Shown here in pieces: positions 18,312 through 42,688 of a stretch of 46,225 nucleotides of DNA. The notes under the pieces were generated by a model. It saw nothing but the letters and a program-made list of their open reading frames with translations, was not told the origin of the DNA and searched no databases. Made by a program: the position numbers and the translations under genes. Position 1 is the stretch's first letter, and the number at the start of each line of letters is the position of its first letter. Source of the DNA: Methanotrichaceae archaeon (GTDB lineage Archaea > Halobacteriota > Methanosarcinia > Methanotrichales > Methanotrichaceae); NCBI GenBank assembly GCA_963754945.1, contig CAVWIG010000030.1:1-46225 (forward strand), given 5' to 3'.

Positions 18312-18321
18312 CCCTTACCTA

Positions 18322-20616: not shown

Positions 20617-20677
20617 GGTAGCGTTACATCAGGGCAATCAATATCAGATAAAATCGCTCTCTGCAGGAGGCACTAGG

Positions 20678-21412
20678 ATGTTCAAGGCTGTAATCAACGC
20701 AGAAACTTTGCGCGACGCAATCGAAGCTGTTTCGTCTCTGGTAGACGAGGTGAAGTTCTCTATCTCAGAGAAAGGTATAGAGCTGAAGGCAGTAGACCCT
20801 GCCAATGTAGCCATGGTGTCCCTTAAAGTCGGAGCTGAGGCCTTTGAGTTCTTCAAGACCACCCCCGGAGAGATCGGAGTAGACCTGGTGCGTCTTACCG
20901 ATGTCCTGAGCATGGCTGACAAGGGAGAGAACGTTCAGCTTGAATTGGATGAAGAGAACCGAAAGCTGAAGATCGGTGTTGGATCTCTCTCCTACACGCT
21001 GAGCCTGATCGATCCTTCTGCCATAAGAAAAGAGCCCAAGATCCCAGAGCTTGATCTGCCAGCCCATGTAACCCTCCACGGATCTGAGCTGCGAAGAGCA
21101 GTCAAAGCCGCCGAGAAGGTAAGCGATCACGTAGTCTTAGGCGTCTCTGATGACGTCTTTTTCATGGAGGCGAAAGGAGACATTGATTCCCTGCGCCTGA
21201 ACATACCGAGCACCGAGCTTCTTGGCCTTAAACCAGGCGAGGCTAGGTCACTGTTCTCGCTGGACTACCTGGAGGACATGAGCAAGTCAATAGGCAAGGC
21301 CCAAGAGGTAACCCTTGAGATGGGGATGGATTATCCCCTTCGCGTCGGCTTCAAGATAGGCCAGGCCATAGAGGTCAACTATCTCCTTGCTCCCAGAATT
21401 GAGCAGGAGTGA
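20678..21412 (+). CDS. pcn: DNA polymerase sliding clamp PCNA
   Basis: MFKAVI, AVDPANVAMV, C-terminal YLLAPRIE. Confidence 0.97.
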   Translation: MFKAVINAETLRDAIEAVSSLVDEVKFSISEKGIELKAVDPANVAMVSLKVGAEAFEFFKTTPGEIGVDLVRLTDVLSMADKGENVQLELDEENRKLKIGVGSLSYTLSLIDPSAIRKEPKIPELDLPAHVTLHGSELRRAVKAAEKVSDHVVLGVSDDVFFMEAKGDIDSLRLNIPSTELLGLKPGEARSLFSLDYLEDMSKSIGKAQEVTLEMGMDYPLRVGFKIGQAIEVNYLLAPRIEQE

Positions 21413-21463
21413 TTTCCCGAGCGCGTCTCCCGCGCTCCCTTTGATTCTGTTTCTACCCATCCT

Positions 21464-26491: not shown

Positions 26492-27302
26492 GATCGGTTT
26501 TGTCTCCAGGCACAATGAGGAGTCTGTCCGCCTAGTAGAGATGCTGGCGGACCGATTCCGGTCCAAAGCCGACATCTTCGTCGAGCCAGAAGTTGCCCAA
26601 CAGCTAGGGATTAAAGGGATGCCTGTGGAGGAGATGGAGAGGCAAAGAGTTGATTTCATTGTCTCAGTAGGGGGAGATGGGACAATCCTCCGAACTATCC
26701 ACAGGATGAACGACCCGGTTCCAATCCTTGGAATCAACATGGGTACCCTGGGGTTCCTTGTTGATGTTGAGCCCAAGGAGTCGGAAAAGACCCTTGACAA
26801 ATTGATTCCTGAGTTCGATGTCGACGAGCGGTCCAGGCTTAAGGTCTTGCTGAACGGAAAGAGCCTACCTCCGGCCATCAACGAGGTGGCCCTGATCACG
26901 GCCAGCCCGGCCAAGATGATCGAGTTCGAGATAATCGTCGACGGTTCGCTGATGGAGGACTTCCGCGCAGACGGTGTGATAATAGCTACATCGACAGGGT
27001 CCACTGCCTACGCTATGTCTGCTGGAGGGCCAATAGTGGATCCAAGGGTGGATGCCATAGTTATGGTTCCAATGGCTCCCTTCAAACTCTCCTCCAGACC
27101 CTGGGTCATACCGGGGGACAGCATCATCGAGGTAAAGCTGAAGCTTCCTCTGAAGGATGCACTTGTTGTGATAGACGGCCAGAGCACGACCACTATCTCC
27201 ATGAGCGACTCCCTGGTCATTAGCAAGGCTGACACTCCAGCAAGGTTTGTTAAGGTGGGCAAGGACGGGTTCTTCGAGAAGGTCAAGAGCAAGCTGGCCT
27301 AA
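26481..27302 (+). CDS. nadK: NAD(+) kinase
   Basis: GGDGT, GINMGTLGFL, NE and ADG..TGSTAYAMSAGGP motifs. Start uncertain (GTG 26481 or ATT 26487). Confidence 0.93.
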   Translation: MPIKIGFVSRHNEESVRLVEMLADRFRSKADIFVEPEVAQQLGIKGMPVEEMERQRVDFIVSVGGDGTILRTIHRMNDPVPILGINMGTLGFLVDVEPKESEKTLDKLIPEFDVDERSRLKVLLNGKSLPPAINEVALITASPAKMIEFEIIVDGSLMEDFRADGVIIATSTGSTAYAMSAGGPIVDPRVDAIVMVPMAPFKLSSRPWVIPGDSIIEVKLKLPLKDALVVIDGQSTTTISMSDSLVISKADTPARFVKVGKDGFFEKVKSKLA

Positions 27303-27636
27303 TGCTTCTACGACTGCAAGCTGCAAACTGAAATGTCTTCAGCACGATATTGATGACATCGACGAATAATGCCTGCTTTCAAATATCTTGCCTTCCATTC
27401 GATCGAAGCCTTCGTTAAATGAAACTGTAGATTCGACGGCCGTCATTGTCCGGACAATTGTTCGCTGCGCTAGGTCGTGAACTACTTTCTAAGATGCCCA
27501 CGAGCAAGCTAAATATAATGACTAAAGAATGGCCCAGAAAATTGGAATGAAGATGGCCAGGGCCCGAGGTACAAAGCCCACGAGCACCTTACAACCTTCA
27601 ACTGACTATGGATTTACACAGTGTTGACGGCCGAAT

Positions 27637-28194
27637 CTAAGTCATGGCCATAAGCTCAAGCTTCAACCGGTCCCCATCATCTGCTGCCGGATCGGATTCG
27701 GCCATCTTTCTCTGGCCATCTTCCTCAGGTATATAAGTAAGGTAAAGCTTCCGTCTCTTGCCCTGGGTAAGCTTCACCCTCGGGTCAAGGTCCACGGCAC
27801 GCTTCATAACGTTTATGACCGTGGTCTTATTGAGTCCGAGCATGTCCACCAGTTCACTGGTAGTGTACCTTCCAGGTCTCTCGCTTATGATATCGACAAG
27901 GCTCTTGGCATGTCCATCAAGAGCTTTGCCCTCTGACGAACCCAGTTCTTGTACAGGGCTTTGTCGTCCCTGTTTTGCCTTTAGCTGGCTCTTCAGGTCG
28001 GCCACATCTTTTGAGAGACGATCAACTTGATCGATCAGCCTGCCCAGGAGATCAACGTCAGCCTGCCTTGCTTTCAGCTCGCTTGACATCTTTTCGATGG
28101 CTGAAACAAGAGTTATCATTGCCTGAGCTTCTTTTCTTTCCTTTTCTATCTCAACTGCTTTTGTTTTGTATAGCTCTAAAAGCTCTTCGAACAT
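27637..28194 (-). CDS. Hypothetical protein with N-terminal coiled coil and C-terminal wHTH-like segment
   Basis: Heptad-like N-terminal half; YTTSELVDMLGLNKTTV HTH-like motif. Confidence 0.7.
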   Translation of the reverse strand: MFEELLELYKTKAVEIEKERKEAQAMITLVSAIEKMSSELKARQADVDLLGRLIDQVDRLSKDVADLKSQLKAKQGRQSPVQELGSSEGKALDGHAKSLVDIISERPGRYTTSELVDMLGLNKTTVINVMKRAVDLDPRVKLTQGKRRKLYLTYIPEEDGQRKMAESDPAADDGDRLKLELMAMT

Positions 28195-28411
28195 CTTTAG
28201 GCTACTCCTATTATTTTCTATCTTGACCTCGTCTTAAATGATTCTAAAAGACTTATCGAATATCACAGAACGACCCTAGTATAAATACTTTTCTTAAAAT
28301 TCTTCGGATATGGCGGCTCAAAGATAGATGCATCAGACATGATTCCCATTTTCGCCGAAGGAATCGTGGAAGGGCTGATTTTGTGGACATATTGGACATA
28401 CATTACGAGGT

Positions 28412-29206
28412 TTACCTGAGGTTGCTTCTAAGAAGCTGTGGGAGCTCCTGGATATCCTCGATTACTACGTCGGCCGCTTGGAAGAGGCAGGGTAAGGGAT
28501 GGCTGTCTTGCTGAACCGTCAGCACGCCCAGGTCTGCTGCCTTGAGAGCATGCAGATCATTAAGGCCATCCCCTACCATCACTACCATTTCGTAACTCTG
28601 CTTCAGCTCCATTATGATGTTACGTTTGCGTCCTGGGCTTGACACCGAGCAAATGCGATCTAGTTGAAAGCCGTAGTTCGCCAGGCAGAGCAGGCTTCTC
28701 ATGCTGTCCCCCGATGCGATATACACATCCGCCTCGATCTTTTGAAGCTCGGAGAGTACCTCGGTTAGGCCCGAGAAAGGAATGCCTGATGTGCAGATGG
28801 TGTGAGAGACCTCCGAAAGATCGGCATCCACGATTACCCCAGTTGTCCGGTAATTACTTTGGCACTTGGCAACCACAGCCCTGTAGACCTCTTGGATATC
28901 GCCGATCGTTGCTCTGGATGCACGCACGATTTCAATGGCTTTCTCCCTAGAAACGGGAGTGCTGCAACAGCTTATCTCTATTAATGCTTCCAGGAAAATT
29001 GAGCTGAGGAGCTGATCAGGTGGATACGAGGTTACTTCCGTCGGGTCTAACTGGGGCACAACCAGCGCCCTTCCCGGTTTTTCCATAATCAGGTCCGAGG
29101 TTATAACCTTCTCTATCAGGCAGCCAGTTGAGATTTCTTTGGCCACCCGGTACATTCTGAGAATCGTGCCTGCCACATCGAAGACTACTGCAAGATCTCT
29201 GGGCAT
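28412..29206 (-). CDS. HAD-superfamily hydrolase (soluble P-type ATPase-like)
   Basis: VFDVAGT, IASGD and MVGDGLND motifs. Confidence 0.85.
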   Translation of the reverse strand: MPRDLAVVFDVAGTILRMYRVAKEISTGCLIEKVITSDLIMEKPGRALVVPQLDPTEVTSYPPDQLLSSIFLEALIEISCCSTPVSREKAIEIVRASRATIGDIQEVYRAVVAKCQSNYRTTGVIVDADLSEVSHTICTSGIPFSGLTEVLSELQKIEADVYIASGDSMRSLLCLANYGFQLDRICSVSSPGRKRNIIMELKQSYEMVVMVGDGLNDLHALKAADLGVLTVQQDSHPLPCLFQAADVVIEDIQELPQLLRSNLR

Positions 29207-29477
29207 CCGCCAGAAGTTCAATTCATGGAGAGATCAAGCTATCGGTATCTGTTGGTCTAGAAGCTTATCGATGAAAGCTAAATACGATGATATGCAGTGG
29301 TCATATCAGTCATTGATCATAACATCTAATCGATGTGGACTGACCCACTGGTCGGGAATTTTAGGCACATGCTGTTTTCTAAAACGTTCCTCATTAATAA
29401 GCCAGCGATTTACGACCAAGATCGCGCCATGTACAACTAACATAAAGTTTATGGCATCATAAACATTATGAGATATA

Positions 29478-30230
29478 ATGAATCCTTTCAGTATCGCAGC
29501 TGCTTATGTATTGATAGCAATTCTCGGATCTGCCTACGCCACAACCGTTTCTGTCTATCCAGACGGCAGTATCCAGGCAGCCATCTATACAGCCAAATCG
29601 GGGGATATCATAGAGGTTCACAGTGGGGTCTACTACGAACATGTCAATGTTAACAAGCGGATCACATTGAGAGGCATAAACATGCCGATTCTGGATGCCA
29701 CAGCAAGTGGCAGTGCCGTCACCCTTAAGACAGACGGAATCATCCTCCAGGGTTTCAGGACTATCAACTCTGGCCTATGGCCTGGAGACGGATCAAAAGA
29801 AGCAGGAATAAAGGTGCTCTCGAACAACAATATCATCGAAAATAACAACGCAAGTAACAACTCCAATGGCATATTCATCATTGGGGGCAACAACAATACC
29901 ATAACAGAAAACAATGCCAGCAACAATTTGGGATACGGGATTATGCTCTCCACCTCCGTCGGGAATATCATTTTTAAGAATAACTTCATTCGCAACTACA
30001 AACAAAACGCTTACGACAATGACGCGAACCGATGGGATGTTGGCAGCGTTGGGAACCACTACGGCAACTTTAGCTCCCTCGCAGAAGGTTGCCTGGACTT
30101 AGGCGGCAACGATGTGTGCGATTTCGGCTATCCTATACCTGGCGGATCGAGCATCGACCATTACCCATCATTGCAACCCTTTCAGGCATGCTTGAGTTAC
30201 GCCAGTGCCCCGATAACTATCCCGTTTTGA
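29478..30230 (+). CDS. Short NosD/CASH beta-helix cell-surface protein; last codons derive from a DUF433 fragment
   Basis: Signal peptide, SIQAAI...GD.I.V..G.Y.E, Asn repeats, GNHY...DHYP. Bases 30181-30210 are identical to 35945-35974. Confidence 0.85.
   Translation: MNPFSIAAAYVLIAILGSAYATTVSVYPDGSIQAAIYTAKSGDIIEVHSGVYYEHVNVNKRITLRGINMPILDATASGSAVTLKTDGIILQGFRTINSGLWPGDGSKEAGIKVLSNNNIIENNNASNNSNGIFIIGGNNNTITENNASNNLGYGIMLSTSVGNIIFKNNFIRNYKQNAYDNDANRWDVGSVGNHYGNFSSLAEGCLDLGGNDVCDFGYPIPGGSSIDHYPSLQPFQACLSYASAPITIPF
30181..30216 (+). repeat. 36-bp fragment of the DUF433 gene
   Basis: 35/36 match to 35945-35980. Confidence 0.85.
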
Positions 30231-30755
30231 TTTTGAGGTCTATCCTGGTGGCTGTTACTTCATTCCCTAAGTCATTGCATCCATTTAGATTCAGAAAATC
30301 AGGAGATAACTTTATTACATCTGTAAATTTCAGTAGTTTCCAATCCAAAATAAATACGCATTCATCGAAATCAGATTGCTTCCAGGTACCATTGTTAAAT
30401 TCGACTTTGTTCCTGATTGAATTGCACATTCCGGACCTATTTACGATAATTTTCTGACCATCGTCCCATAACCAACCACCTTCAATGGCGTCGATTGGTT
30501 TGGGTATAGAATCTAAATTTGTCCTTAATGAATTCCAATAAAGCCTAAATTTCTTATCGATTTCACGTTGTTGCTATCTCCATTGGTCTGCACATTTGTT
30601 GATTGTATTTACAAGCTTTTTTGTACCTTCTTCATCCGTTTTTGCCATTTGAAACTGAATTAAAGGACCTTCAATTTCATTTGGCTCAAGATCCAATAGA
30701 TATGGACATACATACGTACGTCTGTTCTGATAGGCTCTTAGACAAAGCCCCTGCC
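30217..30755 (-). pseudogene. 5'-truncated TIR-domain protein pseudogene
   Basis: Manual translation gives AGALSKSLSEQTYVCPYLLDLEPNEIEGPLIQFQ...KLVNTIN, the second half of a prokaryotic TIR domain. It carries a 4-bp duplication near 30710 and an in-frame TAG near 30575. Confidence 0.7.
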
Positions 30756-30756
30756 T

Positions 30757-30850
30757 ATCGCAGTGGTTTCCCTAGAAAATAATCCCTTCCTTGATAGATG
30801 TCAATGTCCACTCAACTAAGAGGGCGATTCGGTTCCAGAACGAGGGAGAG
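30757..30850 (+). repeat. Degenerate internal mutL fragment
   Basis: Aligns by eye to mutL 39409-39501 (region encoding IDVNVHPTKREIRFQNE). Confidence 0.85.
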
Positions 30851-31004
30851 ATTAGGACATAACCTCGTGCAATCAGGGGCTTGATAGGATAGTCACCCTG
30901 ACAGGATAGAGCGATATCTGTACATCAGTAACTCAAGTTCTTATCTTAGATCAGTATCTATATATACGACCTGTTACGATCTCCAGATCTTAAGGAGGAA
31001 GATA

Positions 31005-31430
31005 ATGAATCCTGCAAAAGAAATACCGACTGGTACCTTTGAAGCGCATAAGAACACAGAAGCACCGAAGATGGGTGCGGGAAAGTTCAAGATCAAGCTG
31101 TTCATAAACGGGATAGAGTTCGGATGGATGGGAAGAAATAACGACGGATGGTGTGTGCTAACAAATGAAAGCCCGCTCGTTTTAGAATACTATCCATACG
31201 GCGGGAAGATGTATTATAAGGTAAGTGAAGAGGATAAATATCTGTCTGTAAGCAATAGCGCTTATGTTGGGTGTTATGGCTGGTGGGGCGCAACAACCTT
31301 CCGGAAAGAGGGCAAATACTTGATATCAGACTATAACAACCAGTATCTATCACTGTATTCCGTTGATAACAAGTATCTGTATGCATGGGATGCATATACA
31401 AAGTTAGAAGTAGAATTTGTGAACGTGTAG
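31005..31430 (+). CDS. Hypothetical Tyr/Trp-rich beta-strand protein
   Basis: AGGAGG SD and upstream TATA-like element; repeated K/QYLS motifs. Confidence 0.75.
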   Translation: MNPAKEIPTGTFEAHKNTEAPKMGAGKFKIKLFINGIEFGWMGRNNDGWCVLTNESPLVLEYYPYGGKMYYKVSEEDKYLSVSNSAYVGCYGWWGATTFRKEGKYLISDYNNQYLSLYSVDNKYLYAWDAYTKLEVEFVNV

Positions 31431-31601
31431 CTCGTCCCAAAATCGCCGTAGCCGCTATAATCCGGAAGGTGGCAAAGCCTGGATATGAATAATCCAATCG
31501 TACATATCCCGACAAAAAATTTTTTTGATATCAATTCAAAATAAAACGATGAAAACTCCGAACATGGATCGTTTGAGTTGCCATCTAGACCGCTTCCTGC
31601 A

Positions 31602-32783
31602 TTATGCCGGCTTAGGCCAATCATCCAGTGGCATGCCGTCCATCATGAGGTACCTTTCGACGAAATCGTGGTGCTCGATCGCAGCTCTATTGAATTTATA
31701 ATAATCCATCTTCCGGATTGGCTCAGTCTTATATCCTTTTTTCACGATATCGAGCCATGCATCCGGATCATAATGCCCAGGTGGCGCGCTCAGGGTACCC
31801 AGCGATCCGTCACTCATCTCTTTTATCCATAACTCGCATCTGAATTGTACAGCTTTCTCATAATTGCAGCCGTACTTGTGCTTTGTGTTTAATATGCGTC
31901 GAATAACTTTCAGGAATTCCTCGCCTATGGGATCAGGCTTTAGAACATCGAATGTACTTCCATCTCTAATACACCTCAGGGCTGTAACCATCTCTTTAAA
32001 TGTCCTGAGATACTCATCAGGGTTGTTCTTAAGAATGGGCGTGGATGACCACTTAGGTGAGTATTCGTAAGCATCCCACGGATAATCCGGAACATGCCCC
32101 ATGCGGCCGTGTCCAAGATAATTCCAGACCTCGTACCTTATCGGGTCTGGTGGTGTGCACCATTCTCCAGTCAGATTGTAAGGGATCTTTTGCGGAGGCG
32201 TCACAGTTTGATCCCAGACATCGCCGGTTGCATCGTTCACATGCCATGCCGGAGTTCCGGCGAAGTCCATGTGAGCTCCGGAGTCCGCGAGCACATGCAT
32301 CCTGATACCGGCAAGGTGAAGTTTAAAAGGACCTGAAACATCGTTGATCATCTTTGTGATCAACGGGCTTTGAGGCCTGCAGAGGAGTTTGAACTGCCAG
32401 ATGGCACGGTCGTCGTACTTCCATCTAAGACCATTGCTCCTTGGACCAGTATACACTCGTTCCCTTGATTTCCAGTTGGGATCGGGCAGGACCGCAGATT
32501 CATAGTTTCCAGGCAAGAAGTGGAACGGCACCCATATATGGCGCATATACTTATGATCGTCAATTAGCATATTCGTCATAGGTTCACAAGTTGGTATCGG
32601 CTGAAAGTCAATGCCGTACTCTCCGTTTTTGATTATTCGGTTTGGGGAGAGTCCGAGACGATCTGCGGGGGCGGAATCGTCCACGTACTGAGCTGCGTGA
32701 GCTATCGTGATCGCATCACTGCGATCATAACCTGCCAGCATGGCGGCTGTGAATGTGCCGTAATAATGGAAATCCATATCCAT
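31602..32783 (-). CDS. DUF6765-like protein (putative metal-dependent hydrolase)
   Basis: MDMDFHYY...AQYVDD, WVPFHFLPGN, HVLADSGAH and LGHG motifs; GGAGG SD before the ATG at 32783. Confidence 0.75.
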   Translation of the reverse strand: MDMDFHYYGTFTAAMLAGYDRSDAITIAHAAQYVDDSAPADRLGLSPNRIIKNGEYGIDFQPIPTCEPMTNMLIDDHKYMRHIWVPFHFLPGNYESAVLPDPNWKSRERVYTGPRSNGLRWKYDDRAIWQFKLLCRPQSPLITKMINDVSGPFKLHLAGIRMHVLADSGAHMDFAGTPAWHVNDATGDVWDQTVTPPQKIPYNLTGEWCTPPDPIRYEVWNYLGHGRMGHVPDYPWDAYEYSPKWSSTPILKNNPDEYLRTFKEMVTALRCIRDGSTFDVLKPDPIGEEFLKVIRRILNTKHKYGCNYEKAVQFRCELWIKEMSDGSLGTLSAPPGHYDPDAWLDIVKKGYKTEPIRKMDYYKFNRAAIEHHDFVERYLMMDGMPLDDWPKPA

Positions 32784-33000
32784 TTTTGCCCTCCTATTTC
32801 TTTCAAATTGGTTCGAGTTACATCTCACATATATTTAGCAGTTTTGGAATTCATAATATTAATTAATTTTATTACTTGGCAGAGATGCGAGGATATGTTG
32901 TCAGGTCACCTTTCGAAAAGATAAAATCCAATCATAGGCTACATGACCTTCTCAGGCGTAAAAGGCCTACTTCAAGTCCAGCACCAGTACCTTCCGATAG

Positions 33001-33247
33001 AGAAATAAACGCTTTTGAAATCAAGAGATGCCGATGCCAAAATCAGACTCCTGGATGAGGACACCATAAACAAGATAGCAGCAGGCGAGGTAATCGAGAG
33101 GCCCGCCTCCATCGTCAGGAACTTGAGGAGAACTCCATCGACGCCGAGTGCACCAGGATACAAGATCGAGGTTATAGATGGCGGCAAGAGCATGGTAAAA
33201 GTGACCGCCGACGGTTGCGGCGTTGTTCAGGAAGACCAGGCCCTGGC
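33001..33247 (+). pseudogene. Degenerate copy of the mutL 5' end and leader
   Basis: Aligns to 38528-38774 with several indels; encodes IRLLDEDTINKIAAGEVIERPAS. Confidence 0.9.
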
Positions 33248-33419
33248 CGCACCAGCGGTCTTTTCTATCGACTATTGCATAGGCATTTTCAGTTAGGACT
33301 ATCCTCTGCGCTTTGTACCTGGCGCTCTTGACATTGATCACAGGATCGCTTACCTTTCCAGCCTCAGCTATGATCCTGTGACCACGTATCGAGCCGCCGA
33401 TCTCGTAGCCCTCCATTCA

Positions 33420-33603
33420 ATCGGCTCCATCTTGCCTTCCAACTCCAGGTCATCCATGATCTTGCATACCAGTTCGTAATCCAGTTGCAGATCGGTGCTG
33501 GGATCAGAGGCGAACGCCTCCCCTTTCATCTGGAAATACCCGACCACTTCTTTCTTGGCTGTCTCGTAATCTACATCCCTGCATTCGATGACTTGATTGC
33601 CAT
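33420..33603 (-). pseudogene. Frameshifted paralog of the small wHTH-like gene at 35537-35740
   Basis: After a 1-nt deletion near the start it reads IECRDVDYETAKKEVVGYFQMKGEA...LDYELVC. Confidence 0.75.
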
Positions 33604-33641
33604 CCCTTTGCCCCTAGGTTTTATAATGAAAAATCGAGTAT

Positions 33642-33875
33642 CTAAACTGAAAACCACTCCTCGCGGCTGATCTCTCCTTCTTTTAAGATCTGCGCTAGAA
33701 GCCCAACACTAAAATCCTGGCCATGATGAGGATTGGGAATGGTCACATATATACGCCCCTTGGCTAGCTCCTTAACCATATAGGCATGCCCTGATCCCGG
33801 ATAAGGTCCCTCGAATCCCAACTTTCCTAGCCGTCGGATAAGCTCTTGCCTAGAGACAGGAAGGAGCCTAGACAA
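33642..33875 (-). CDS. hicA: HicA-family toxin
   Basis: ELIRRLGKLGF...GSGHAYM...TIPNPH...GLLAQIL pattern. Confidence 0.85.
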   Translation of the reverse strand: MSRLLPVSRQELIRRLGKLGFEGPYPGSGHAYMVKELAKGRIYVTIPNPHHGQDFSVGLLAQILKEGEISREEWFSV

Positions 33876-34119
33876 CTGCTATCGGCTCCGCAGAGACATC
33901 AATGGTAACGCCATCTATGGAAGGAATTGTATCGCCCATCCTTAATCGTAGTGCTATCCATCCTTCGATAACTTCGATAAGATCTTGACGGCACTCTTCA
34001 ATGGTATCACCGATGGCAATCACGCCCTGCAAGCCCTCTACGGTGGACATGTATGTACCATCTTCAAGGATCTCGTATTTCGCATGTCTCAAACTGGCCT
34101 GAATGTACTCAGTAAACAT
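33868..34119 (-). CDS. hicB: HicB-family antitoxin (short, no DNA-binding domain)
   Basis: EDG.Y....L.GV.A.G.T.EE...L.E..EGW...G..IP pattern; overlaps hicA. Confidence 0.85.
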   Translation of the reverse strand: MFTEYIQASLRHAKYEILEDGTYMSTVEGLQGVIAIGDTIEECRQDLIEVIEGWIALRLRMGDTIPSIDGVTIDVSAEPIAVV

Positions 34120-34273
34120 ACCAATCTCCTATTCACGCCTGTTTAGATTTAACACTATCTTGTCCTAGCCTTATGTGGACTGAAATGAGGCATCTGTCTT
34201 ATGCACTTCAGAGATCCCAATTCTAGATCGATTTAAAGGCTCGATGCTGGAAAGATCTTTTACATGCATTGTT

Positions 34274-34490
34274 ATGAACTGGCAGGAGCATATTATTGCT
34301 GACCTGACCTAAAGTTTCTGGCCGGAAAACCTGTTATCAAGGGCACCCGCCTGGCGGTTGAGTTCGTCCTCGACCTACTGGCTGGAGGATGGTCGGAAGC
34401 TGAAGTATTGCAGAACTACCCGAGATTGACTCATGAGGATATTCAGGCATGTTTTGAGTTACGCCAGTGCCTTGATAAAATCTGAAAAGG
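34274..34490 (+). pseudogene. DUF433 antitoxin pseudogene
   Basis: Close copy of 35782-35992 with a 5-bp CTGAC duplication causing an early TAA; 3' end and toxin partner missing. Confidence 0.88.
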
Positions 34491-34622
34491 ACTTAACACC
34501 ATTATGATTATCATTACTATTCCGGCAATAAGGAACCAAAGAGGCACCCCATAACGCTCGGCCGCTGGCTCTGCAATCAGTAGGCCAATGTGCATTGTGA
34601 TTGACATCAGGCCTTCCATGAG
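34490..34622 (-). pseudogene. C-terminal fragment of an MFS transporter
   Basis: Translates as LMSITMHIGLLIAEPAAERYGVPLWFLIAGIVMII, resembling MFS TM11-12. Confidence 0.45.
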
Positions 34623-34731
34623 TGAGATGTGTGGCCTTTATTCTTCCGATTATGATTTAGAAACAAACTAAAAATCTTGATGATATGGTGCATTATGCTA
34701 GAAGCACCATACACCTATTGGAAACTGATAT

Positions 34732-35145
34732 CTATGCTTTTGCCCGGCTAAGCTTATCAATGCCCACCGACATTGCTTTTCCACTTGATAAGTATATCAG
34801 TTCGATCTCATCATTGGAAACGATCGACCCCAGAGCATAGCCCTCGGTAACTTCAGCGATATAGAGACTTTTACTATCCGAACCGATGGCGCCAGCAAAC
34901 CCTTCACTAGCGGCAGTTCCATTCTCGTGCTTATATGTTAGATTTCCAGAGAAGACGCGGCCCTCCTGCTCTGTAATAGCCATGACAAAGGGTTCATTTT
35001 GAGTCGCGTTAGAGTAACCGACCCCTGCATTATACCCACCCCACGAAACGGTCCAATTCCCTTTCAGATTCGGAACTTCTGCCATACAGACCCCTGTGGC
35101 AAAGAGGCTCAGTACCAACAGGGCCAAACACAAAAATTTTTTCAT
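34732..35145 (-). CDS. Hypothetical secreted protein
   Basis: Signal peptide MKKFLCLALLVLSLFATG; NLKGNW followed by beta-strand-like sequence. Confidence 0.8.
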   Translation of the reverse strand: MKKFLCLALLVLSLFATGVCMAEVPNLKGNWTVSWGGYNAGVGYSNATQNEPFVMAITEQEGRVFSGNLTYKHENGTAASEGFAGAIGSDSKSLYIAEVTEGYALGSIVSNDEIELIYLSSGKAMSVGIDKLSRAKA

Positions 35146-35198
35146 GTGTATTAAGTTACTGAAGATACCTATTTAGAGCTTACGATTTAGTAATAATT

Positions 35199-35479
35199 TT
35201 AGATAGTATCCCCATTACGACCAAGCTTATTTCCGGTTACCTTCCCTGCTGATCGAATAACCTGATCCTCCATGGGACGGGTCATCCGGTGAATTGCGAT
35301 AAGGTTGAGTTTTGACAGACGCTCTGCCGGACCAAGGTTGCCGCTGACGAAATGGGCGTTGAGATTTTCGAGATTCGAGAGGCAGACGAGCTGCGAGATG
35401 TCGGTATAATCCTGGTTATTGCCTTTCCGTTATGGGTTTTTCTTCCTCATTCTTTTGCGCTCATGCCGAACAACGCCAT
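35199..35479 (-). pseudogene. C-terminal fragment of a KilA-N-domain protein
   Basis: MALFGMSAKE* then, in another frame, KGNNQDYTDISQLVCLSNLENLNA...ERLSKLNLIAI. Confidence 0.6.
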
Positions 35480-35536
35480 TCGCCCAATCTTCCAGACTTA
35501 TGGCCCTGATTCTGTAGCTATGAGGTGTCTACGATA

Positions 35537-35740
35537 TCATAACATTCTATCAAGGGACCGCCAAGCGTCCTCTCGGTTCAGCTCGTTCACGTTCTGGCAT
35601 ATCAATTTATAATCAAGTTCAAGATTTTCCTCGATCTCGGAGGCATACGCTTCGCCTTTCATCTGGAAATACCCGGCTACTTCTTTCTTGGCCGTCTCGT
35701 AGTCAACATCACGACATTCGATGACCTTGATTGCCTTCAT
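35537..35740 (-). CDS. Small wHTH-like protein
   Basis: AYASEIEENLELDYKLIC HTH-like motif; a paralogous copy lies at 33420-33603. Confidence 0.65.
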   Translation of the reverse strand: MKAIKVIECRDVDYETAKKEVAGYFQMKGEAYASEIEENLELDYKLICQNVNELNREDAWRSLDRML

Positions 35741-35781
35741 CGCAGGTATCTTAAAGACATGAAGCATTATATAGCATTGTT

Positions 35782-36027
35782 ATGAACTGGCAGGAGCGAA
35801 TTATTGCCGACCCAAAGGTTCTGGCCGGAAAACCTGTTATCAAGGGCACCCGCCTGGCGGTTGAGTTCATCCTTGACCTACTGGCTGGAGGATGGTCGGA
35901 AGCTGAGGTATTGCAGAACTATCCGAGATTGACTCATGAAGATATTCAGGCATGCTTGAGTTACGCCAGTGCCCTGATAAAATCTGAAAAGGTCTTTCCG
36001 ATCAAGGTTTTACAGGAAGAACTCTGA
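35782..36027 (+). CDS. DUF433 antitoxin
   Basis: DPKVLAGKPVIKGTRL...YPRLT.EDIQACL.YA signature. Confidence 0.92.
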   Translation: MNWQERIIADPKVLAGKPVIKGTRLAVEFILDLLAGGWSEAEVLQNYPRLTHEDIQACLSYASALIKSEKVFPIKVLQEEL

Positions 36028-36377
36028 TGCGGCTGCTGGCGGATGAGAATATACCTCTCAATGCGGTCCAAATATTTCGGAAAAACGGGCACGATATCCT
36101 ATCTATATCCGAGTCTCGGCCTCAAACTCCCGATGAAGATATATTAGAGCTGGCGGAAAAAGATGAGCGCATAGTGCTGACATTCGATAAGGATTTCGGA
36201 GAGCTGGCCTTTTGTTTCGATCTTCCAGCTTCGTGTGGCATTGTTCTCTTTCGAATTCCTTTGTTATCGGTTGATTATGTTACTGACATTATTATCGAAG
36301 TTATAGAATCCAGATCTGATTGGGCGGGTCATTTTTCAGTTGTAGAACCCGGGCGGATTCGCATGAGGAAACTTTAG
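36027..36377 (+). CDS. DUF5615 PIN-like toxin
   Basis: LLADEN, DEDI and LTFDKDFGE motifs; TGATG coupling with DUF433. Confidence 0.9.
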   Translation: MRLLADENIPLNAVQIFRKNGHDILSISESRPQTPDEDILELAEKDERIVLTFDKDFGELAFCFDLPASCGIVLFRIPLLSVDYVTDIIIEVIESRSDWAGHFSVVEPGRIRMRKL

Positions 36378-36453
36378 GGGCGGATTGCTTCCAACATTAT
36401 CGATGTAATCTAGAATAATATGTGAATTTTTTTTGGTATTTGGCGATTGAACC

Positions 36454-37442
36454 TGCTGTGTCGATTAAGCTTAAATAGTTTAAATATAAATATTGTGTCA
36501 TGAACTATATTGATAATAGAGACTGGCCAGAATATAATGCCCAACTTGTTCGAAGAGGCGAATTCTATCTCGATTTGAGTTGTGTGAAGAACTGGAGTTG
36601 GGAATTAAGAGAAATGAATAGAAAGAAAACAGGCGCTCCATACAAAAACCCTAACACTTTTATAACTTTTGCATCAATAATATACTCTTTTTTCCGAATG
36701 CCATATCGTCAACTTGAAGGATTCTTTGGACGACTTTCGACCTATGAACCAGGATTGGTGGCGGCAGATTATACCACCCTCCATAAGCGAATCTCTAAGC
36801 AAGATCTTGGAATAGAGATACCATAGAACGACGCTGTTGTTGCAGTTGATTCAACTGGGATAAAGGTAACAAATAGAGGGGATTGGATGCGCGAGAAACA
36901 CGGAAAGCAGCGGCGAGGATGGCTTAAAGTTCATGTGGCAGTCGACGTTGAATCAAAGAGATTATTGTCTATGGAAGTTACAGAAGAAGACACCTCGGAT
37001 AGCGAGGTTTTGCGCCCTTTGTTGAAAGACGTCAATATTGAGGAGGGGTTGACGGATGGCGCATATGACACAAACGACGCATTTGAATTTATGAAATCGA
37101 AAGGTGTAGATTGTCCAGGGATTAAGATCAGAGAGAACGCGATAGTAGGCAAAGATGCATCAGCCAGGTCAACAGCTGTTCTGGAATTCAAAAAAATGGG
37201 CTACAAGGGTTGGAAGCAAATGCATCAGTACGGTAGAAGGTGGGCAGTTGAAGGCTTCTTCTCATCGATCAAGCGTATCTTTGGTGAGACGGTTCGGGCA
37301 TCTTCACCAGAAGGAATGGTCGCCGAGATTAAAAGAGCATTCATTTTGTATGATATACTTAGGAGCATATAAGTAATTAGTTAAAATAAATTATGAATTC
37401 TTGAATAACGAAATAATACTATAATAATCATGCGACACAGCA
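36454..37442 (+). mobile_element. IS5-family (ISH1-like) insertion sequence
   Basis: 10-bp TIRs TGCTGTGTCG (36454-36463 / 37433-37442); 8-bp target duplication ATTGAACC at 36446-36453 and 37443-37450. Confidence 0.9.
36500..37372 (+). pseudogene. IS5-family transposase interrupted by one in-frame TAG at 36824-36826
   Basis: Both halves are in the same frame; VDSTG, WLKVH, DGAYD and YGRRWAVE DDE motifs. Confidence 0.85.
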
Positions 37443-37497
37443 ATTGAACCTTATTTCTATAATATCAATATAAGCAAAATGACGTGGACAGATCAGA

Positions 37498-38382
37498 TTA
37501 CATAAAATCGATTGAAGAATTCAATTTGATTAATTCCTTTTCCATCAAAAAACAACAGTGGTAAAATTCATCCAATAAGTAAAAATAGAATTTAACGTTT
37601 GCTCCATTTAACCCAGCTCTCGATAATATCCATTGCATTTGGAGATCTTTCCAAGCGTTCAACCGCTTGCATTCTATGATATAAGTCTCTAGAGAATCAA
37701 TAAAATCGATAGGGAATAAATGTCCAACTTGAATAATTTGTAAAGCATAATCATAAGAAAATTGATCTGGATTTAATGAACCTTTATGTTCTAATTCATT
37801 TTTGCTCGCCACCAAATCCAATGCAATTGAGCAATTATTACTATTTTCGTTTATAAATCTTTTCAACTTTTGTTGTCTTTCTGTGGCTATAGGCCTCAAA
37901 ATAGTTTGTTTCTCCATTAAGAAAGATATTATACTATAAGTACAATCTTTGATATTGTAAGAATTATCATTCAGTTCTAGATCAATGAATTCCATATTTT
38001 GGGAAATAAAGCCATTTGATGTTATCCTATTGTACTCATCATAATCAATCCCTAAACTATGATTTGCATTTTTAGTACATTTTTCGGTGATATGCTGTAT
38101 TATTTGTATCTGACCTATCTCTTTCAATGCCTTTGCGTATCCCCATTCCTGGTTTACAAATTGATTCTTAATTGAATTTCTAGTCAACAATACTAGAAAT
38201 ACATTACATAACTTGAAATATTTTATTATTTTATCTGTAAATGTTGTGTCACCTTCTCGTCTGGATTCAACTAAGTGGCTAAAGAAATTAGCTCCTAATT
38301 TACTATTGATCTCATCTACCATATATTTGAGCTCCTCTCCAGCATAACTCAAAAATATCCCATTCATCATAATAAGATCCAC
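37498..38382 (-). CDS. TIR-domain protein with unrecognised C-terminal region
   Basis: IFLSYA...FLVLLTRNSIKNQFVNQEWGYA TIR motifs with the catalytic-position Glu; markedly AT-rich. Confidence 0.8.
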   Translation of the reverse strand: MDLIMMNGIFLSYAGEELKYMVDEINSKLGANFFSHLVESRREGDTTFTDKIIKYFKLCNVFLVLLTRNSIKNQFVNQEWGYAKALKEIGQIQIIQHITEKCTKNANHSLGIDYDEYNRITSNGFISQNMEFIDLELNDNSYNIKDCTYSIISFLMEKQTILRPIATERQQKLKRFINENSNNCSIALDLVASKNELEHKGSLNPDQFSYDYALQIIQVGHLFPIDFIDSLETYIIECKRLNAWKDLQMQWILSRAGLNGANVKFYFYLLDEFYHCCFLMEKELIKLNSSIDFM

Positions 38383-38553
38383 CCTACTTAATCATACTTT
38401 TACTATTTCGTGATCTATTTGCATCATATTTAAAGCAGTTCGCGGTTTTACGCCATCGATGTCTTCCTTGAAGAAGATATTTATATTTTCCAAGCCCCGC
38501 CTTCATCCTGATAACGTATTCAAGCATAGAAATAACCGCTTTGAAATCAAGAG

Positions 38554-40314
38554 ATGCCGATGCAAAAGATCAGACTCCTGGATGAGGACACCATAAACAA
38601 GATCGCAGCAGGCGAGGTAATCGAGAGGCCCGCCTCCGTCGTCAAGGAACTTGTGGAGAACTCCATCGATGCAGGTGCAACCAGGATACTCATCGAGGTG
38701 ACTGATGGCGGCAAGAGTCTGGTAAAAGTGACCGACGACGGCTGCGGCATCGGTCAGGAAGACCTGTCCCTGGCTTTCCAGAAACACGCCACATCCAAGA
38801 TCTCCAGTGCAGTTGATCTGAGCAGCATCTCTACCCTGGGTTTTCGCGGCGAGGCCCTTTCGAGCATTGCCAGCGTTGCCGGATCGGTGGAGGTCCATAC
38901 AAAGCCCCGGTCGGCCCTTTCCGGGTCCTACATGAAAATAGTCGATGGCAGTGTATCCGCGATCAAGGACATCGGCTGTCCTGCCGGGACCAGCATTGTT
39001 GTGCGGGATCTGTTCCACAACGTTCCTGCAAGGCTGAAGTATCTGAAGAGCGCCAGCGCCGAGCTGGTGCGAGTGACTGAGCTGGTGACAGAGATGGCCA
39101 TCATCAACTACAACATCTCTTTTGAGCTTTTCACCGGCAATCGCACTATCTTCAAGTCCAGCCGATCGGAGGACTGGAACGACGTCCTCCTGAAGGTCTT
39201 TGGCCTTGAAACCGTCAAGAGGCTCATTCCCTTTCGGGCCGAATCGCGGAGTTTCAGCCTGACGGGCGTCGTTGGTGGCCCACTATGCACCCGGTCCAGC
39301 CCCGACTGGATCTATGTCTTCGTCAACGGCAGGCCGGTGTCGTCCCGTGCCTTAACCTCAGGGCTGCGTGAAGCCTACAGAACCATCATACCTCTGGGGA
39401 AGAGCCCAATCGCAGTGGTAACGCTAGAGATCAATCCATCATTGATAGATGTCAATGTCCACCCAACCAAAAGGGAGATCCGGTTCCAGAATGAGGAAGA
39501 GGTTGCAAAAGCCCTGATCGAGGCTGTCACGGAGGCCCTGAAGGTGAAGGCAGGATCTGAGACGGGGGTAGGCCAGGGCCAGGCAACAGCAGAACAGCCC
39601 AGAGGGAGAATTCTCGGTCCTGGGGAGATCGCCGACCTGACAGTCGCCGGTGTTGCGGAGCAGAGCACCTTTCCTCTTGAAATTGCGGGATGTCAGGTTA
39701 AAGTGGACCTTGAGAATCCCGAAGGAGTCGAGGTCGGGCCCTCCAGGCTTAGGGTTCTCGGCCAAGTGCTCACGCTGTATATCGTAGCTGAGAGCGAGCA
39801 GGGCCTCATGCTAATCGACCAGCACGCAGCAGCAGAGCGGATAAGGTTCGAGCGCCTCCGGGAGAGGTACGGCCAGAAAAAGATCTCCCAGGAGCTGGTC
39901 GAGGCCGTTACCATCGAGCTCTCGCCAAAAGAGCAGCAGATTCTCGAATCCTGGAAGGAGGTGCTAGCGGACATCGGCTTCGATATCGATCACTTTGGAG
40001 GCAGTACCTACAACATCCGGGCAGTTCCGTCAACTGGCTACAGGCTGGAGAGCCCGGAGGCCATTCACGACATCCTGAGCGACTTCTTTTCCCAGGGGCG
40101 CATCAGCCCGGACTCCACGAACATAGAGGAGGTCCTGAAGATCCTGGCCTGCAGGGGCTCGATAAAGTCCGGCCATGAGATGACCAACAGCGAGATGAGG
40201 ACGCTATTGAAGGACCTTTACACCTGCCAGAACCCTCAAACTTGCCCTCATGGAAGGCCCGTCGCAGTCTTATTTGACGAGGCCCAACTCGAGCGGATCT
40301 TCGGGAGAAGGTGA
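38554..40314 (+). CDS. mutL: DNA mismatch repair protein MutL
   Basis: NKIAAGEVIERPASVVKELVENSIDAGA, GFRGEAL, DVNVHPTK, DQHAAAER, ACR and CPHGRP motifs. Confidence 0.98.
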   Translation: MPMQKIRLLDEDTINKIAAGEVIERPASVVKELVENSIDAGATRILIEVTDGGKSLVKVTDDGCGIGQEDLSLAFQKHATSKISSAVDLSSISTLGFRGEALSSIASVAGSVEVHTKPRSALSGSYMKIVDGSVSAIKDIGCPAGTSIVVRDLFHNVPARLKYLKSASAELVRVTELVTEMAIINYNISFELFTGNRTIFKSSRSEDWNDVLLKVFGLETVKRLIPFRAESRSFSLTGVVGGPLCTRSSPDWIYVFVNGRPVSSRALTSGLREAYRTIIPLGKSPIAVVTLEINPSLIDVNVHPTKREIRFQNEEEVAKALIEAVTEALKVKAGSETGVGQGQATAEQPRGRILGPGEIADLTVAGVAEQSTFPLEIAGCQVKVDLENPEGVEVGPSRLRVLGQVLTLYIVAESEQGLMLIDQHAAAERIRFERLRERYGQKKISQELVEAVTIELSPKEQQILESWKEVLADIGFDIDHFGGSTYNIRAVPSTGYRLESPEAIHDILSDFFSQGRISPDSTNIEEVLKILACRGSIKSGHEMTNSEMRTLLKDLYTCQNPQTCPHGRPVAVLFDEAQLERIFGRR

Positions 40315-40484
40315 CCGCGAAGGCAGGGGACCGGGAGATTGCAGAGGATTAGAGAAGGAATGGTAAGGGAAGTGCAAAAGAAATTGTTAAACTGATATTG
40401 TCGAACTGCAACCGACGTGATATTCATCCTTAAGACCTTCAATAGAATAGTCAGCCTTTTTTATCTCTAGATCAATTGCCAGCC

Positions 40485-41795
40485 ATGGATCTTGAAGGTT
40501 TTGCGAAGAGGGGGCTACGTAGACACGACCCTGAAGTTGCTTCTAAGCTTGCAGCCATGATCATGGAGGTTAAGGATATCCCCAAAGATCAGGCGGACAA
40601 ATTGGCTCAAGCAGTGATGGAAGAAGCCCGGGCCACTCTGAACCCAAGAGGAGAGGTCTTTTCCCTGCAGAACTCCGGCGTGACAATGGGGGACTTCGGA
40701 GTGGGCTCACGAGGCTCCGGAGACTTTTACACTCACACCAAGATAGCCGAGGTCATAGGCAGGACTGGTGCCGTTGTGGACTCGACCGAGCTGGACGACT
40801 CCGGAGTTGTCAAAGCGGGTGGGAGTTACGTTGTCGTAACAGTGGACGGGATGCACTCCAGGTTGAGCGACTATCCATTTCTTGCGGGCTTTCACGTTAC
40901 AAGGGCTGCTCTGCGCGACATCTACGTGATGGGAGCTAAACCCGTAGCCCTTCTCTCCGACATTCATTTGGCGGACGATGGCGATGTTGCCAAGCTCTTC
41001 GACCACATCGCCGGCATTTCTACTGTCTCTGAGTTGATTGGGGTTCCCCTGATCACAGGAAGCACTCTACGCATAGGCGGCGATATGGTGATCGGAGATC
41101 GGCTGACGGGTTGCGTTGGTGCAGTTGGCATCGCCGACAAGCTGACACCGCGTAAAGACGCTAAACCTGGAGATGTCATCATGATGACGGAAGGAGCCGG
41201 TGGTGGCACCATCTGCGCTGCTGCCCTCTACTACGACTGGCACGAAGTAGTCGACGAGACCCTGAACATCAAGTTCCTTCAGGCAAGTGAGGCCCTGCTC
41301 AAGAAAGACACTACCATTCACGCCATGACCGATGTCACCAACGGAGGCATTCGCGGAGACGCCAAGGAGATCTCCTACACGGCTGGGGTCAAGCTGGTCT
41401 TCGAGGAGGAGAAGATGCGTGACTTGGTCAACCCAAGAGTGAGGACTATGCTTGACGCCCTGGAGATAGACTATTTGGGTGTATCCATCGACGCGCTGTT
41501 GATAATCGCCCCGGAGGACCAGTCGCGAGAGATAGCAAGGACAGTAATGGCTGCTGGAGTTGCCATAGACGTCATCGGCACTGTGGAAAAAGGCAGTGGC
41601 GCAGAGCTGCATATCGATGGAGTGGCAACGGACTTCTCTCCACGGTTCAGGGAGTCCGCCTATACACCGATTAAGAAAGCCATTGGCCAGGAGGCCCGTC
41701 GGGATGTCTCGGAGATGCAGAGCCGAATAGACGAGGCTGCTTGCTTGGGAATAGCAAAGAAAAGACGGTTTGTGGAGAAAATAAGAAGAAGTTAA
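40485..41795 (+). CDS. AIR synthase-related (PurM/HypE/ThiL superfamily) protein
   Basis: DDSGV, DGMHSRLSDYP and AMTDVTNGG motifs. Confidence 0.82.
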   Translation: MDLEGFAKRGLRRHDPEVASKLAAMIMEVKDIPKDQADKLAQAVMEEARATLNPRGEVFSLQNSGVTMGDFGVGSRGSGDFYTHTKIAEVIGRTGAVVDSTELDDSGVVKAGGSYVVVTVDGMHSRLSDYPFLAGFHVTRAALRDIYVMGAKPVALLSDIHLADDGDVAKLFDHIAGISTVSELIGVPLITGSTLRIGGDMVIGDRLTGCVGAVGIADKLTPRKDAKPGDVIMMTEGAGGGTICAAALYYDWHEVVDETLNIKFLQASEALLKKDTTIHAMTDVTNGGIRGDAKEISYTAGVKLVFEEEKMRDLVNPRVRTMLDALEIDYLGVSIDALLIIAPEDQSREIARTVMAAGVAIDVIGTVEKGSGAELHIDGVATDFSPRFRESAYTPIKKAIGQEARRDVSEMQSRIDEAACLGIAKKRRFVEKIRRS

Positions 41796-41941
41796 TTCAA
41801 ATTTTTACAAAGTGATTAATTATATCATAGCTTTCCGACGCTCATAATAATAGTATTCAATTGTTTAACATAAATAAACTATTTATATCATAAGGTACAT
41901 CTCTCTCTATTAACGGGAGCAAATAGAGGGAGTAGATATCC

Positions 41942-42331
41942 ATGAAAGAATCTTTCGTACTGAGGTTTGACGAGAAGGACATCGAGGTAGTTGAGACATT
42001 GAGGAGTCTGGGAGTTCCCAGAAAGGTCTCCAATATGCTCGCCTACCTGGCCAACGTAGATGAGGCAACATCGAGGGAGATCGAAAGGGGATCAGACCTT
42101 AGGCAGCCAGAGGTTAGTATAGCTTTACGCACGCTGCGTAAGAACAATTGGATAGAGGAAAGGATAAGCAAAAGCGACGGAACGGGCAGGCCCATGAAAG
42201 TGTACAGGCTGAGCACATCCATTGGGGAGATCTTGCTGCACTATGAGCAGGAGAAGATGAGCGAAGCAAACAAAGCCATGCAGTCCATTCAAAGGCTTAA
42301 GAGCCTTCTATCTGAGGCTGGTTCCACCTGA
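41942..42331 (+). CDS. wHTH transcriptional regulator
   Basis: ATSREIE...LRQPEVSIAL...GRPMKVYRL motif. Confidence 0.85.
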   Translation: MKESFVLRFDEKDIEVVETLRSLGVPRKVSNMLAYLANVDEATSREIERGSDLRQPEVSIALRTLRKNNWIEERISKSDGTGRPMKVYRLSTSIGEILLHYEQEKMSEANKAMQSIQRLKSLLSEAGST

Positions 42332-42688
42332 TGGTTTGCCTCTCCATTCTTTTATTTTTTGGCCTTAATATATTTTATATCTAGCAATCAAGATTGAAAT
42401 AACTACTAATTTTACAATGCATGAGATCATAATCTCATGATTAAATACCAGAATTAGACCCACATCTTCTGAAATTTTTTTACCACGATGATGCTATATA
42501 GAAGAAACGAGAAATAATAAGTAAGAGCATATGAAGAACTATGGAGTTCGTCCTATGTCGGGCATATCGATAACCCCTTGTGATCAGGATACACGCATGC
42601 CAACTCATGAATATGGACCTATCAGAGGATAACATCTGGGGAACTTGGCTAAACCGGGAATCTTGACAGAACTGTTGGTGGTGACCTT

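Follow-up and report, generated by a model that had tools for sequence, protein, structure and literature searches.

Here, we describe an 8.4-kb island of repeated gene remnants and varied cargo upstream of the mismatch-repair gene mutL in a Methanotrichaceae archaeon (NCBI GenBank assembly GCA_963754945.1). The window, that is, the whole stretch of 46,225 nucleotides (nt) that was analysed, is the entire contig C30 (CAVWIG010000030.1) of this metagenome-assembled genome, which consists of 54 contigs, is 87.7% complete and is termed G000 below; the other G-numbers denote genomes of the same family with which it was compared. The junction of mutS and mutL is a hotspot for defence and toxin-antitoxin genes in this family, and serial displacement at that junction without an integrase is the best reading of the island and probably the correct one.

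Repeated remnants and cargo upstream of mutL

Upstream of the resident mutL lie a small winged helix-turn-helix (wHTH)-like gene, a DUF433/DUF5615 toxin-antitoxin-type pair and a TIR-domain gene, preceded by partial copies of wHTH-like, DUF433 and mutL genes and by other cargo (Table 1). A sequence-only reading of the window had described these copies as modules repeated in one orientation around swapped cargo, and every repeat pair that it had listed was recovered when positions 27000–42500 were compared with themselves by self-blastn (15.5-kb search space), in agreement with an independent repeat search. The strongest match joins the DUF433 pseudogene to the intact copy (34266–34494 and 35774–35996; 91.7% over 229 positions, E 7e-90), the two being shifted in register by 5 nt and by 1 nt. 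The start of mutL recurs at 33001–33247 (against 38528–38774; 89.2% over 250, E 5e-85), the wHTH-like gene at 33446–33604 (against 35579–35738; 77.6%, E 5e-28) and an internal part of mutL at 30754–30853 (against 39406–39504; 82–82.8%, E 2e-21), while a DUF433 scrap at 30181–30216 matches 35945–35980 at 35 of 36 positions (E 1e-10) and also 34442–34478 (E 3e-6). All copies are direct, and a chance origin is ruled out by E-values of 3e-6 to 7e-90 in a search space of this size. The remnants stand in series, with the older ones apparently farther from the mutL anchor, pseudogenes decaying faster: identity to the resident gene is ~82.8% at the 30754 scrap, which would be the oldest displaced mutL remnant, and ~88.6% at the 5' copy (33028). 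The GC content of the island (0.31–0.50, lowest over the gene for the TIR-domain protein TIR294 at 0.31–0.34) contrasts with that of its flanks (0.54–0.59).

Pfam agreed with the domains that had been named from the sequence (DUF433, DUF5615, TIR as TIR_2, HicA and HicB, DUF6765 and the intact mutL), and two remnants at the left end were recognized correctly only in part. The mutL scrap there is present, but it is an internal piece rather than the 5' end. The supposed TIR pseudogene has a PADLOC match to TIR-TM and one in-frame TAG, and its N-terminal part is gone; it has no Pfam TIR match, and it resembles TIR294 only weakly, over the latter's C-terminal part (E 0.048). The displaced mutL 5' copy carries internal frameshifts and, in alignments, lacks the TATA-like module found upstream of the resident gene.

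Table 1. Features of the island and its borders in the window, with the profile match or closest copy for each.
Feature	Coordinates	Strand	Evidence
NosD-like beta-helix gene	29478..30230	+	Pfam NosD, E 2e-11
DUF433 3' scrap, 36 nt	30181..30216	+	35/36 to 35945-35980; 28/28 to G019 mutL-proximal DUF433
TIR-TM-family defence pseudogene fragment	30220..30738	-	PADLOC TIR-TM, E 2.2e-17, profile 87-159 of 293
mutL internal scrap, codons ~285-317	30754..30853	+	82.8% to 39406-39504; 87.9% to G001 mutL
141-amino-acid open reading frame (ORF), cargo	31005..31430	+	No Pfam, PADLOC or NCBIfam match
DUF6765 protein, cargo	31602..32828	-	Pfam, E 4e-62
Displaced mutL 5' copy, about -33 to +221 of ATG	32996..33247	+	89% to 38528-38774
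Second small wHTH-like gene copy	33313..33604	-	78% to 35579-35738; 81% to mutL-adjacent wHTH of G001
HicA toxin and HicB antitoxin pair	33642..34119	-	Pfam HicA_toxin, E 1e-8; UPF0150/HicB, E 7e-26
DUF433 pseudogene, frameshifts	34266..34494	+	91.7% to intact copy
MFS transporter C-terminal scrap	34443..34619	-	NCBIfam Mef(A)/Mef(B), profile 353-399, E 2e-6, far under family cut-off
137-amino-acid ORF, cargo	34732..35145	-	No Pfam family; 75%-identical relative in G059
Small wHTH-like protein, 76 amino acids	35537..35767	-	Divergent from DUF433; 247 relatives
Intact DUF433 and DUF5615 (PIN-like) toxin-antitoxin-type pair	35782..36377	+	Pfam, E 8e-25 and 2e-24
IS5-family insertion sequence	36454..37442	+	NCBIfam IS5, E 1e-43
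TIR-domain protein TIR294, 294 amino acids	37498..38382	-	Pfam TIR_2, E 2e-8; PADLOC ThsB-like, E 8e-5
Upstream module with TATA-like box GAAGATATTTATATTTTCCAA	38463..38553	+	Aligned in G000, G001, G019, G005, G041, G016
Resident intact mutL, 586 amino acids	38554..40314	+	Four MutL Pfam domains

The Pfam scan bore out the earlier statement that no integrase is present: it gave no match to a tyrosine or serine recombinase in the window, and the islands of G001, G019, G041, G060, G075, G076 and G082 likewise hold transposases of insertion sequences (IS) as their only such enzymes (IS5, IS630, IS1-like and other DDE types); the scan took in eight islands altogether, none with a recombinase match. 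One of these, the IS5 element of the window, had been missed by the sequence-only reading. It has 10-nt inverted ends TGCTGTGTCG and an 8-nt target duplication ATTGAACC, and is 98.8% identical to a copy on contig C17; its transposase ORF is matched roughly 20 times in the genome. Being a recent insertion of the simple kind, flanked by its target duplication, this element was ruled out as the agent of the island. An integron-type cassette array was also rejected, since the window contains no recombinase in the Pfam scan and the repeat search gave no recurring short site there, such as attC-like sites between cassettes would be, besides the gene copies.

Several of the smaller island genes belong to no family in Pfam, NCBIfam or PADLOC profile searches, namely the wHTH genes and the 141- and 137-amino-acid ORFs; the G059 relative of the last adjoins a mutS 3' scrap. 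The relatives of the wHTH-like protein come mostly from Methanothrix and include longer forms with an N-terminal ribbon-helix-helix domain (PF17723), and the second wHTH copy in the window still holds a 59-amino-acid ORF (33368–33547). At the end of another G000 contig (C28:228067–230129), a wHTH gene (77% identical) stands with hicB, hicA and an IS5 copy, and members of the wHTH family seem to move together with toxin-antitoxin pairs.

Insertions at the mutS-mutL junction across the family

The locus was compared by searching 105 family genomes with MutL and MutS and counting the resulting rows by hand. Eight genomes could not be judged (five without a mutL match, one with a C-terminal piece only and two whose contig stops at the junction). 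Of the 90 genomes that have both gene ends on one contig, 82 have the mutL start abutting the mutS stop, and in the genus of the window the distance from stop to ATG is 2 nt; in an early sample, full-length mutS ended a few bases before mutL in 13 of 16 family loci. The remaining eight have gaps of 3939 nt (G001), 4880 nt (G019), 4228 nt (G076), ~3960 nt (G075), 2105 nt (G060), 1189 nt (G082), 636 nt (G110) and 339 nt (G016), and a further seven (G000, G005, G041, G059, G065, G087 and G093) have mutS and mutL on separate contigs with other DNA at the junction. An insertion is thus present in 15 of 97 informative genomes, spread over four genera, and absent from 82. The abutting arrangement is probably ancestral, and the window probably holds the mutL-proximal half of a variable island at this junction.

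The mutS of G000 lies on contig C17 (68316–70994) and is followed, as in G001, by a 47–51-nt mutL start and an erythromycin-esterase-like gene, beyond which synteny with G001 ends at an IS. Similar mutL scraps behind mutS are shorter or longer in G019, G065, G076 and G093 (~27 to ~120 nt across genomes). The mutS gene is itself partly duplicated, with 3' fragments of 260–350 codons in G019, G041, G059 and G075. Taken over different genomes, the repeats measure ~27 to 254 nt, and no constant core is found at both ends. The most complete parallel is G019, a member of another genus whose locus lies within a 2.2-Mb contig. There, mutS is followed by a scrap of mutL (~27 nt) and a MazF-like gene; codons 541–800 from the 3' part of mutS then run into a fused DUF433 scrap, after which come another DUF433, accompanied by DUF5615, two more mutL scraps (a 5' one of codons 1–82, with stops, and one of codons 116–176), HicAB, a DUF433 cut at its 3' end, the upstream module and mutL. 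The G019 locus therefore contains the resident mutL and two large scraps of it, three copies of DUF433 and two of mutS. Two DUF433 copies precede mutL in G041, in which two mutS 3' fragments and MazF lie downstream of mutS.

Apart from these anchors, cargo is not common between genomes. G075 carries GmrSD and Fic/SoFic, G076 GmrSD and an IS, G082 Abi_alpha (Abi_alpha/PDC-S47), G041 CARF with mCpol, and G060 three ORFs of unknown family; several other island ORFs also lack a family. Over all islands, the cargo families comprise TIR, TIR-TM, GmrSD (twice), SoFic/Fic, Abi_alpha, CARF with mCpol, MazF, HicAB and DUF433/DUF5615. The junction is a defence and toxin-antitoxin hotspot with turnover of content. 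The prediction of changing cargo between constant anchors was thereby borne out, and the invariant content that would have spoken against it was not found in relatives; the second constant anchor, mutS, had gone unnamed in the sequence-only reading.

The left border of the island in the window falls on the NosD-like gene's stop codon (30176/30181). Homology of G001 and G002 to the window ends at 30176 and 30182, where their own NosD-like genes have TAG and TAA, and the microhomology at this junction is only ~2 nt. The stop codon was lost at the junction, and the reading frame now extends by 17 codons across the DUF433 scrap, which makes the C-terminus chimeric. Window junctions other than this one could be later deletions.

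An assembly chimera, in which alternative alleles of co-existing strains were chained through DUF433 or mutL words, would be consistent with a window that is one whole contig of a 54-contig draft genome, with public runs that hold at most 0.38 of the sampled words, with the presence of related strains with other alleles in like samples, and with loose ends at 30182, 33672, 34235 and 34660. However, the copies are 78–97% identical rather than exact and would make poor assembler paths, G019 has a like architecture inside its 2.2-Mb contig, and contigs from other samples bridge five junctions. The public sequencing-run data consist of per-run contigs (X-numbers), with no long read across the island, and stretches that these do not cover are uninformative. 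An X2 contig spans 30069–30756 and bridges both 30176/30181 and 30216/30217 (687 aligned nt, 5 differences); 30853/30854 is bridged by X2 and X3, 33000/33001 by X5, and 33247/33248 and 34494 by X1 with zero differences, although X1 may be the source sample of the window. The junction 30753/30754 is bridged by none of the contig pieces listed, and one X2 contig departs from the window there. Contigs of X3 and X5 leave the window at 30182 with a NosD-like gene end of the G002 type, indicating that an island-free allele of this site coexists in nature. Misassembly is unlikely, to the point that we give a chimera very little credence.

One X2 contig skips 33673–34096 (424 nt, most of hicA-hicB) and may represent a deletion variant, one side of the joint being only 24 nt long. 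An IS630-type element with identical Pfam scores occurs on the contigs that form the mutS-side/mutL-side pair of G041 (C30, L058:7462–8467, and C15, L059:7749–8754); the two contigs probably join through it, giving an island of ~13 kb. In G000, a 550-amino-acid DDE transposase lies on C17 (72887–74539) just past the esterase-like gene, near the end of G001 synteny, and a 549-amino-acid one lies in the window (13383–15032); IS activity may have parted mutS from mutL in this genome. A simple inversion that separated mutS (C17) from mutL (C30) was not supported, the G001 DNA past the NosD-like gene being unmatched in G000. In G002, which belongs to the genus of the window and is 93% complete, mutS is in two pieces in different frames (C64:141–2619; codons 6–776 and 818–891) and the search for mutL gave no match; this lineage may lack working mismatch repair. 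The mutL of G103 (C17) is in five pieces and that of G076 (C58) in two, and G010 (C20) has an in-frame TAG, which reflect either broken repair genes or assembly indels. A replication gene cluster (Cdc6/Orc1, PCNA and primase large subunit) occupies 15274–22465 of the window, 8–15 kb left of the island, and a replication origin may lie near it.

The mosaic mutL start and proposed routes of displacement

A module of ~85 nt that contains GAAGATATTTATATTTTCCAA precedes mutL in six island-bearing genomes (G000, G001, G019, G005, G041 and G016) and is absent, in alignments, from genomes in which mutS abuts mutL. Its TATA-like box (TTTATAT) lies at 38470–38490 in the window. It resembles a BRE/TATA promoter by archaeal consensus, and it is presumed to free mutL from the mutS operon; a promoter would be required after mutL had been cut off from mutS. 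Such a portable promoter would let the two genes separate, and in G000 and G005 they are on different contigs.

The start of the gene itself is mosaic. Relative to the mutL of G000, that of G019 is 89.7% identical over nt 1–223 and 67.9% over nt 224–940, the corresponding values being 84.8% and 66.1% for G005, 84.8% and 66.7% for G041, and 84.3% and 63.5% for G059 (four genomes from two genera other than that of G000), versus 67–75% and 58–68% in 12 uninterrupted genomes. Among island-bearing genomes, nt 1–223 together with the upstream module show 84–95% identity. The sliding identity profile falls at ~nt 223, so that the shared segment of the resident gene is 38554–38776; the displaced copy in the window ends at nt 221 (33247), and the mutL 5' scrap of G019 reaches at least nt 246, its end lying within ~25 nt of the boundary. 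On these alignments the mosaic start is incompatible with vertical descent, which suggests that the module and the mutL start were exchanged as a unit between genera by recombination resolving in the conserved N-terminal block. The homologous anchor in mutL that had been suggested from the window is thus backed by a 5' segment common to different genera. In a tree of the 223 nt, from which only two well-supported forks were used, the displaced copy is sister to the G001 allele rather than to the resident one (98/94 support), which counts against recent duplication in place.

We therefore favour serial displacement, whose steps may be pictured as follows. New island alleles would arrive as DNA from related lineages, each bringing defence or toxin-antitoxin cargo, the TATA-type promoter module and the first ~220–250 nt of mutL. 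The right end would be resolved by homologous recombination within the conserved mutL 5' region, and the left end by an illegitimate join or by entry of a circle through a single crossover. The earlier mutL 5' end and part of the earlier cargo would be kept, shifted leftwards and left to decay into scraps, and repeated rounds would yield the internal mutL scrap, the mutL 5' copy and the resident mutL, with orphan DUF433 remnants and varied cargo between them.

Several points weigh against this reading. The mutL N-terminus is the best conserved part of the gene, exceeding nt 224–940 in identity by 1.5–15 points even in uninterrupted genomes, and part of the elevated identity over nt 1–223 is therefore conservation; the 223-nt tree leaves 12 of 24 forks open, the sequence being too short. 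The three mutL break points (nt 221, at least 246 and ~223) lie close together and would also fit a site-specific crossover. Between the two copies of the wHTH/DUF433 duplication in the window there is no mutL scrap, so that at least one step would need another route, and the 33247/33313 junction, at which mutL nt 221 runs into the wHTH 3' flank, fits a duplicated G001-like unit of wHTH, promoter and mutL 5' end. The DUF433 protein is 60–75% identical even to bacterial homologues, making its high identity between genera weak evidence of transfer, and DUF433 was dropped as a transfer marker for this reason. The events cannot be dated, because each species is represented by one metagenome-assembled genome, and we know of no DNA-uptake route in these archaea.

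That last junction would be expected if one or two old tandem duplications of the wHTH-DUF433-cargo-mutL unit had occurred in place by unequal crossing-over, followed by decay, deletions and independent cargo insertions instead of repeated allele import, and the direct orientation of all copies agrees with such an origin. We nevertheless consider it unlikely: the cargo between the anchors is unrelated (the TIR-TM remnant, DUF6765, HicAB and TIR), the displaced mutL copy groups with another genome's allele, the mosaic segment is common to two other genera, and island content varies among relatives.

The clustered break points near nt 221–246 in three cases would also suit a site-specific integrative element at the mutL 5' end, with its integrase lost or supplied in trans and with the replacement promoter and mutL 5' end as attachment region. 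Such an element would also account for a right end that restores the target gene and stays conserved from one genus to another, and for the tandem pile-up with repeated target-gene ends, which is typical of integrase-borne islands. It is an unlikely origin, given that the window and the seven other islands encode IS transposases and no tyrosine or serine recombinase, that the mutS-side scraps of ~27 to ~120 nt leave no constant core, that the duplicated mutS 3' fragments far exceed the length of an attachment site, and that nothing else of the cargo is common between genomes.

Serial displacement, which remains our preferred reading, might in addition use a second anchor at DUF433. The DUF433 copies of three genomes lose homology at almost one place (three of seven end in GATAA and two more 12–17 nt later), and the 36-nt scrap of the window is identical at 28 of 28 positions to the 3'-cut copy of G019. 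These clustered ends may reflect selection for loss of the toxin with the antitoxin kept, or a second recombination anchor; the earlier suggestion of anchoring on the toxin-antitoxin gene agrees with them, and nothing further points to it. Across 79 DUF433 loci kept from other genomes there are 75 DUF5615 matches, and among these loci, within the family, mutL stands beside DUF433 only in G019 and G041, indicating that DUF433/DUF5615 is a toxin-antitoxin pair of the ordinary kind that came to lie here rather than a mutL-specific element. In two Nostoc genomes (L094 and L102), mutL lies ~1.5 kb upstream of a DUF433/DUF5615 pair, which may be coincidence or a wider link.

A bolder extension, which we regard as doubtful, is that the island is a self-perpetuating mobile unit without an integrase, whose portable promoter and mutL 5' end serve as its handle. 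Two 5' copies would allow a circle to be looped out by host recombination and to re-enter another mutL by a single crossover, while the island's own promoter would keep the split operon working. Among the public-run contigs listed, whose coverage is partial, no joint between the two mutL 5' copies points to excision or to a circle. A split of the mutS-mutL operon may, moreover, reduce mismatch repair for a time and, mismatch repair being a barrier to recombination with diverged DNA, thereby promote a further acquisition.

Comparison with known hotspots and displacement arrays

In tandem integrase-borne islands at the ends of tRNA and protein genes, one insert is set apart from the next by a copy of the target end, and the gene is restored by the most recent insert. 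The mutS-mutL island differs from these in having no integrase, repeats of variable length and duplications of both flanking genes. A polymorphic segment next to a mismatch-repair gene is described for the mutS-rpoS region of Escherichia coli and Salmonella (PMC4209514). Both are variable, mosaic segments beside a mismatch-repair gene with mosaic alleles, whereas that region lies between mutS and rpoS, without mutL. It is said to be a horizontally acquired mosaic, bacterial, with no involvement of mutL and no serial gene-start scraps described, and Denamur et al. in 2000 reportedly found mismatch-repair genes to be mosaic and often transferred horizontally.

The literature searches, with subscription journals outside their coverage, found no paper describing a mutS-mutL or Methanothrix/Methanosaeta hotspot, and two bacterial systems offer the closest parallels. 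The core defence hotspots cDHS1 and cDHS2 of Pseudomonas aeruginosa are fixed sites between conserved genes with varied anti-virus cargo and lower GC, flanked by non-coding RNA genes and without the hallmarks of mobile elements; these hotspots, which are called enigmatic, are proposed to be filled by homologous recombination through conserved flanks, a process expected to be scarless (PMC10250203). The mutS-mutL site shares with them a fixed position between conserved genes, anti-virus cargo, lower GC and the lack of mobile-element hallmarks, and it is unlike them in being archaeal, in splitting a two-gene repair operon, in the scars left by partial duplication of its flank genes, and in the promoter and gene-start module that travels with the island (PMC10250203).

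The second parallel is with the T6SS (type VI secretion system) effector-immunity arrays of Vibrio cholerae and with the displacement of Rhs C-termini. There, incoming modules displace the old one at a conserved upstream anchor and leave orphan protective genes and remnants in series, all in one orientation, and homology-facilitated illegitimate recombination without an integrase is the proposed route (PMC5361080). The mutL anchor, the serial remnants in one orientation and the missing integrase are features of the same kind; on the other hand, a housekeeping repair gene outside any toxin system serves as anchor in the present case, the displaced material lies upstream of it, the orphans are antitoxin-type (DUF433) genes and flank-gene scraps, and the cargo consists of unrelated defence genes instead of one effector class (PMC5361080).

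It is an open question by what route defence hotspots without an integrase are filled, and at this locus the serial mutL and mutS scraps, together with a mosaic gene start shared across genera, are scars that make the route readable from sequence and testable. The locus also provides a defined defence and toxin-antitoxin hotspot in globally important acetate-using methanogens. To call it an undescribed system, as had been suggested, goes too far for a locus-level phenomenon whose general kind is known: it is not a new defence system, but an integrase-free core hotspot combined with a displacement array, set in archaea, in a split mismatch-repair operon, and equipped with a portable promoter and gene-start module.

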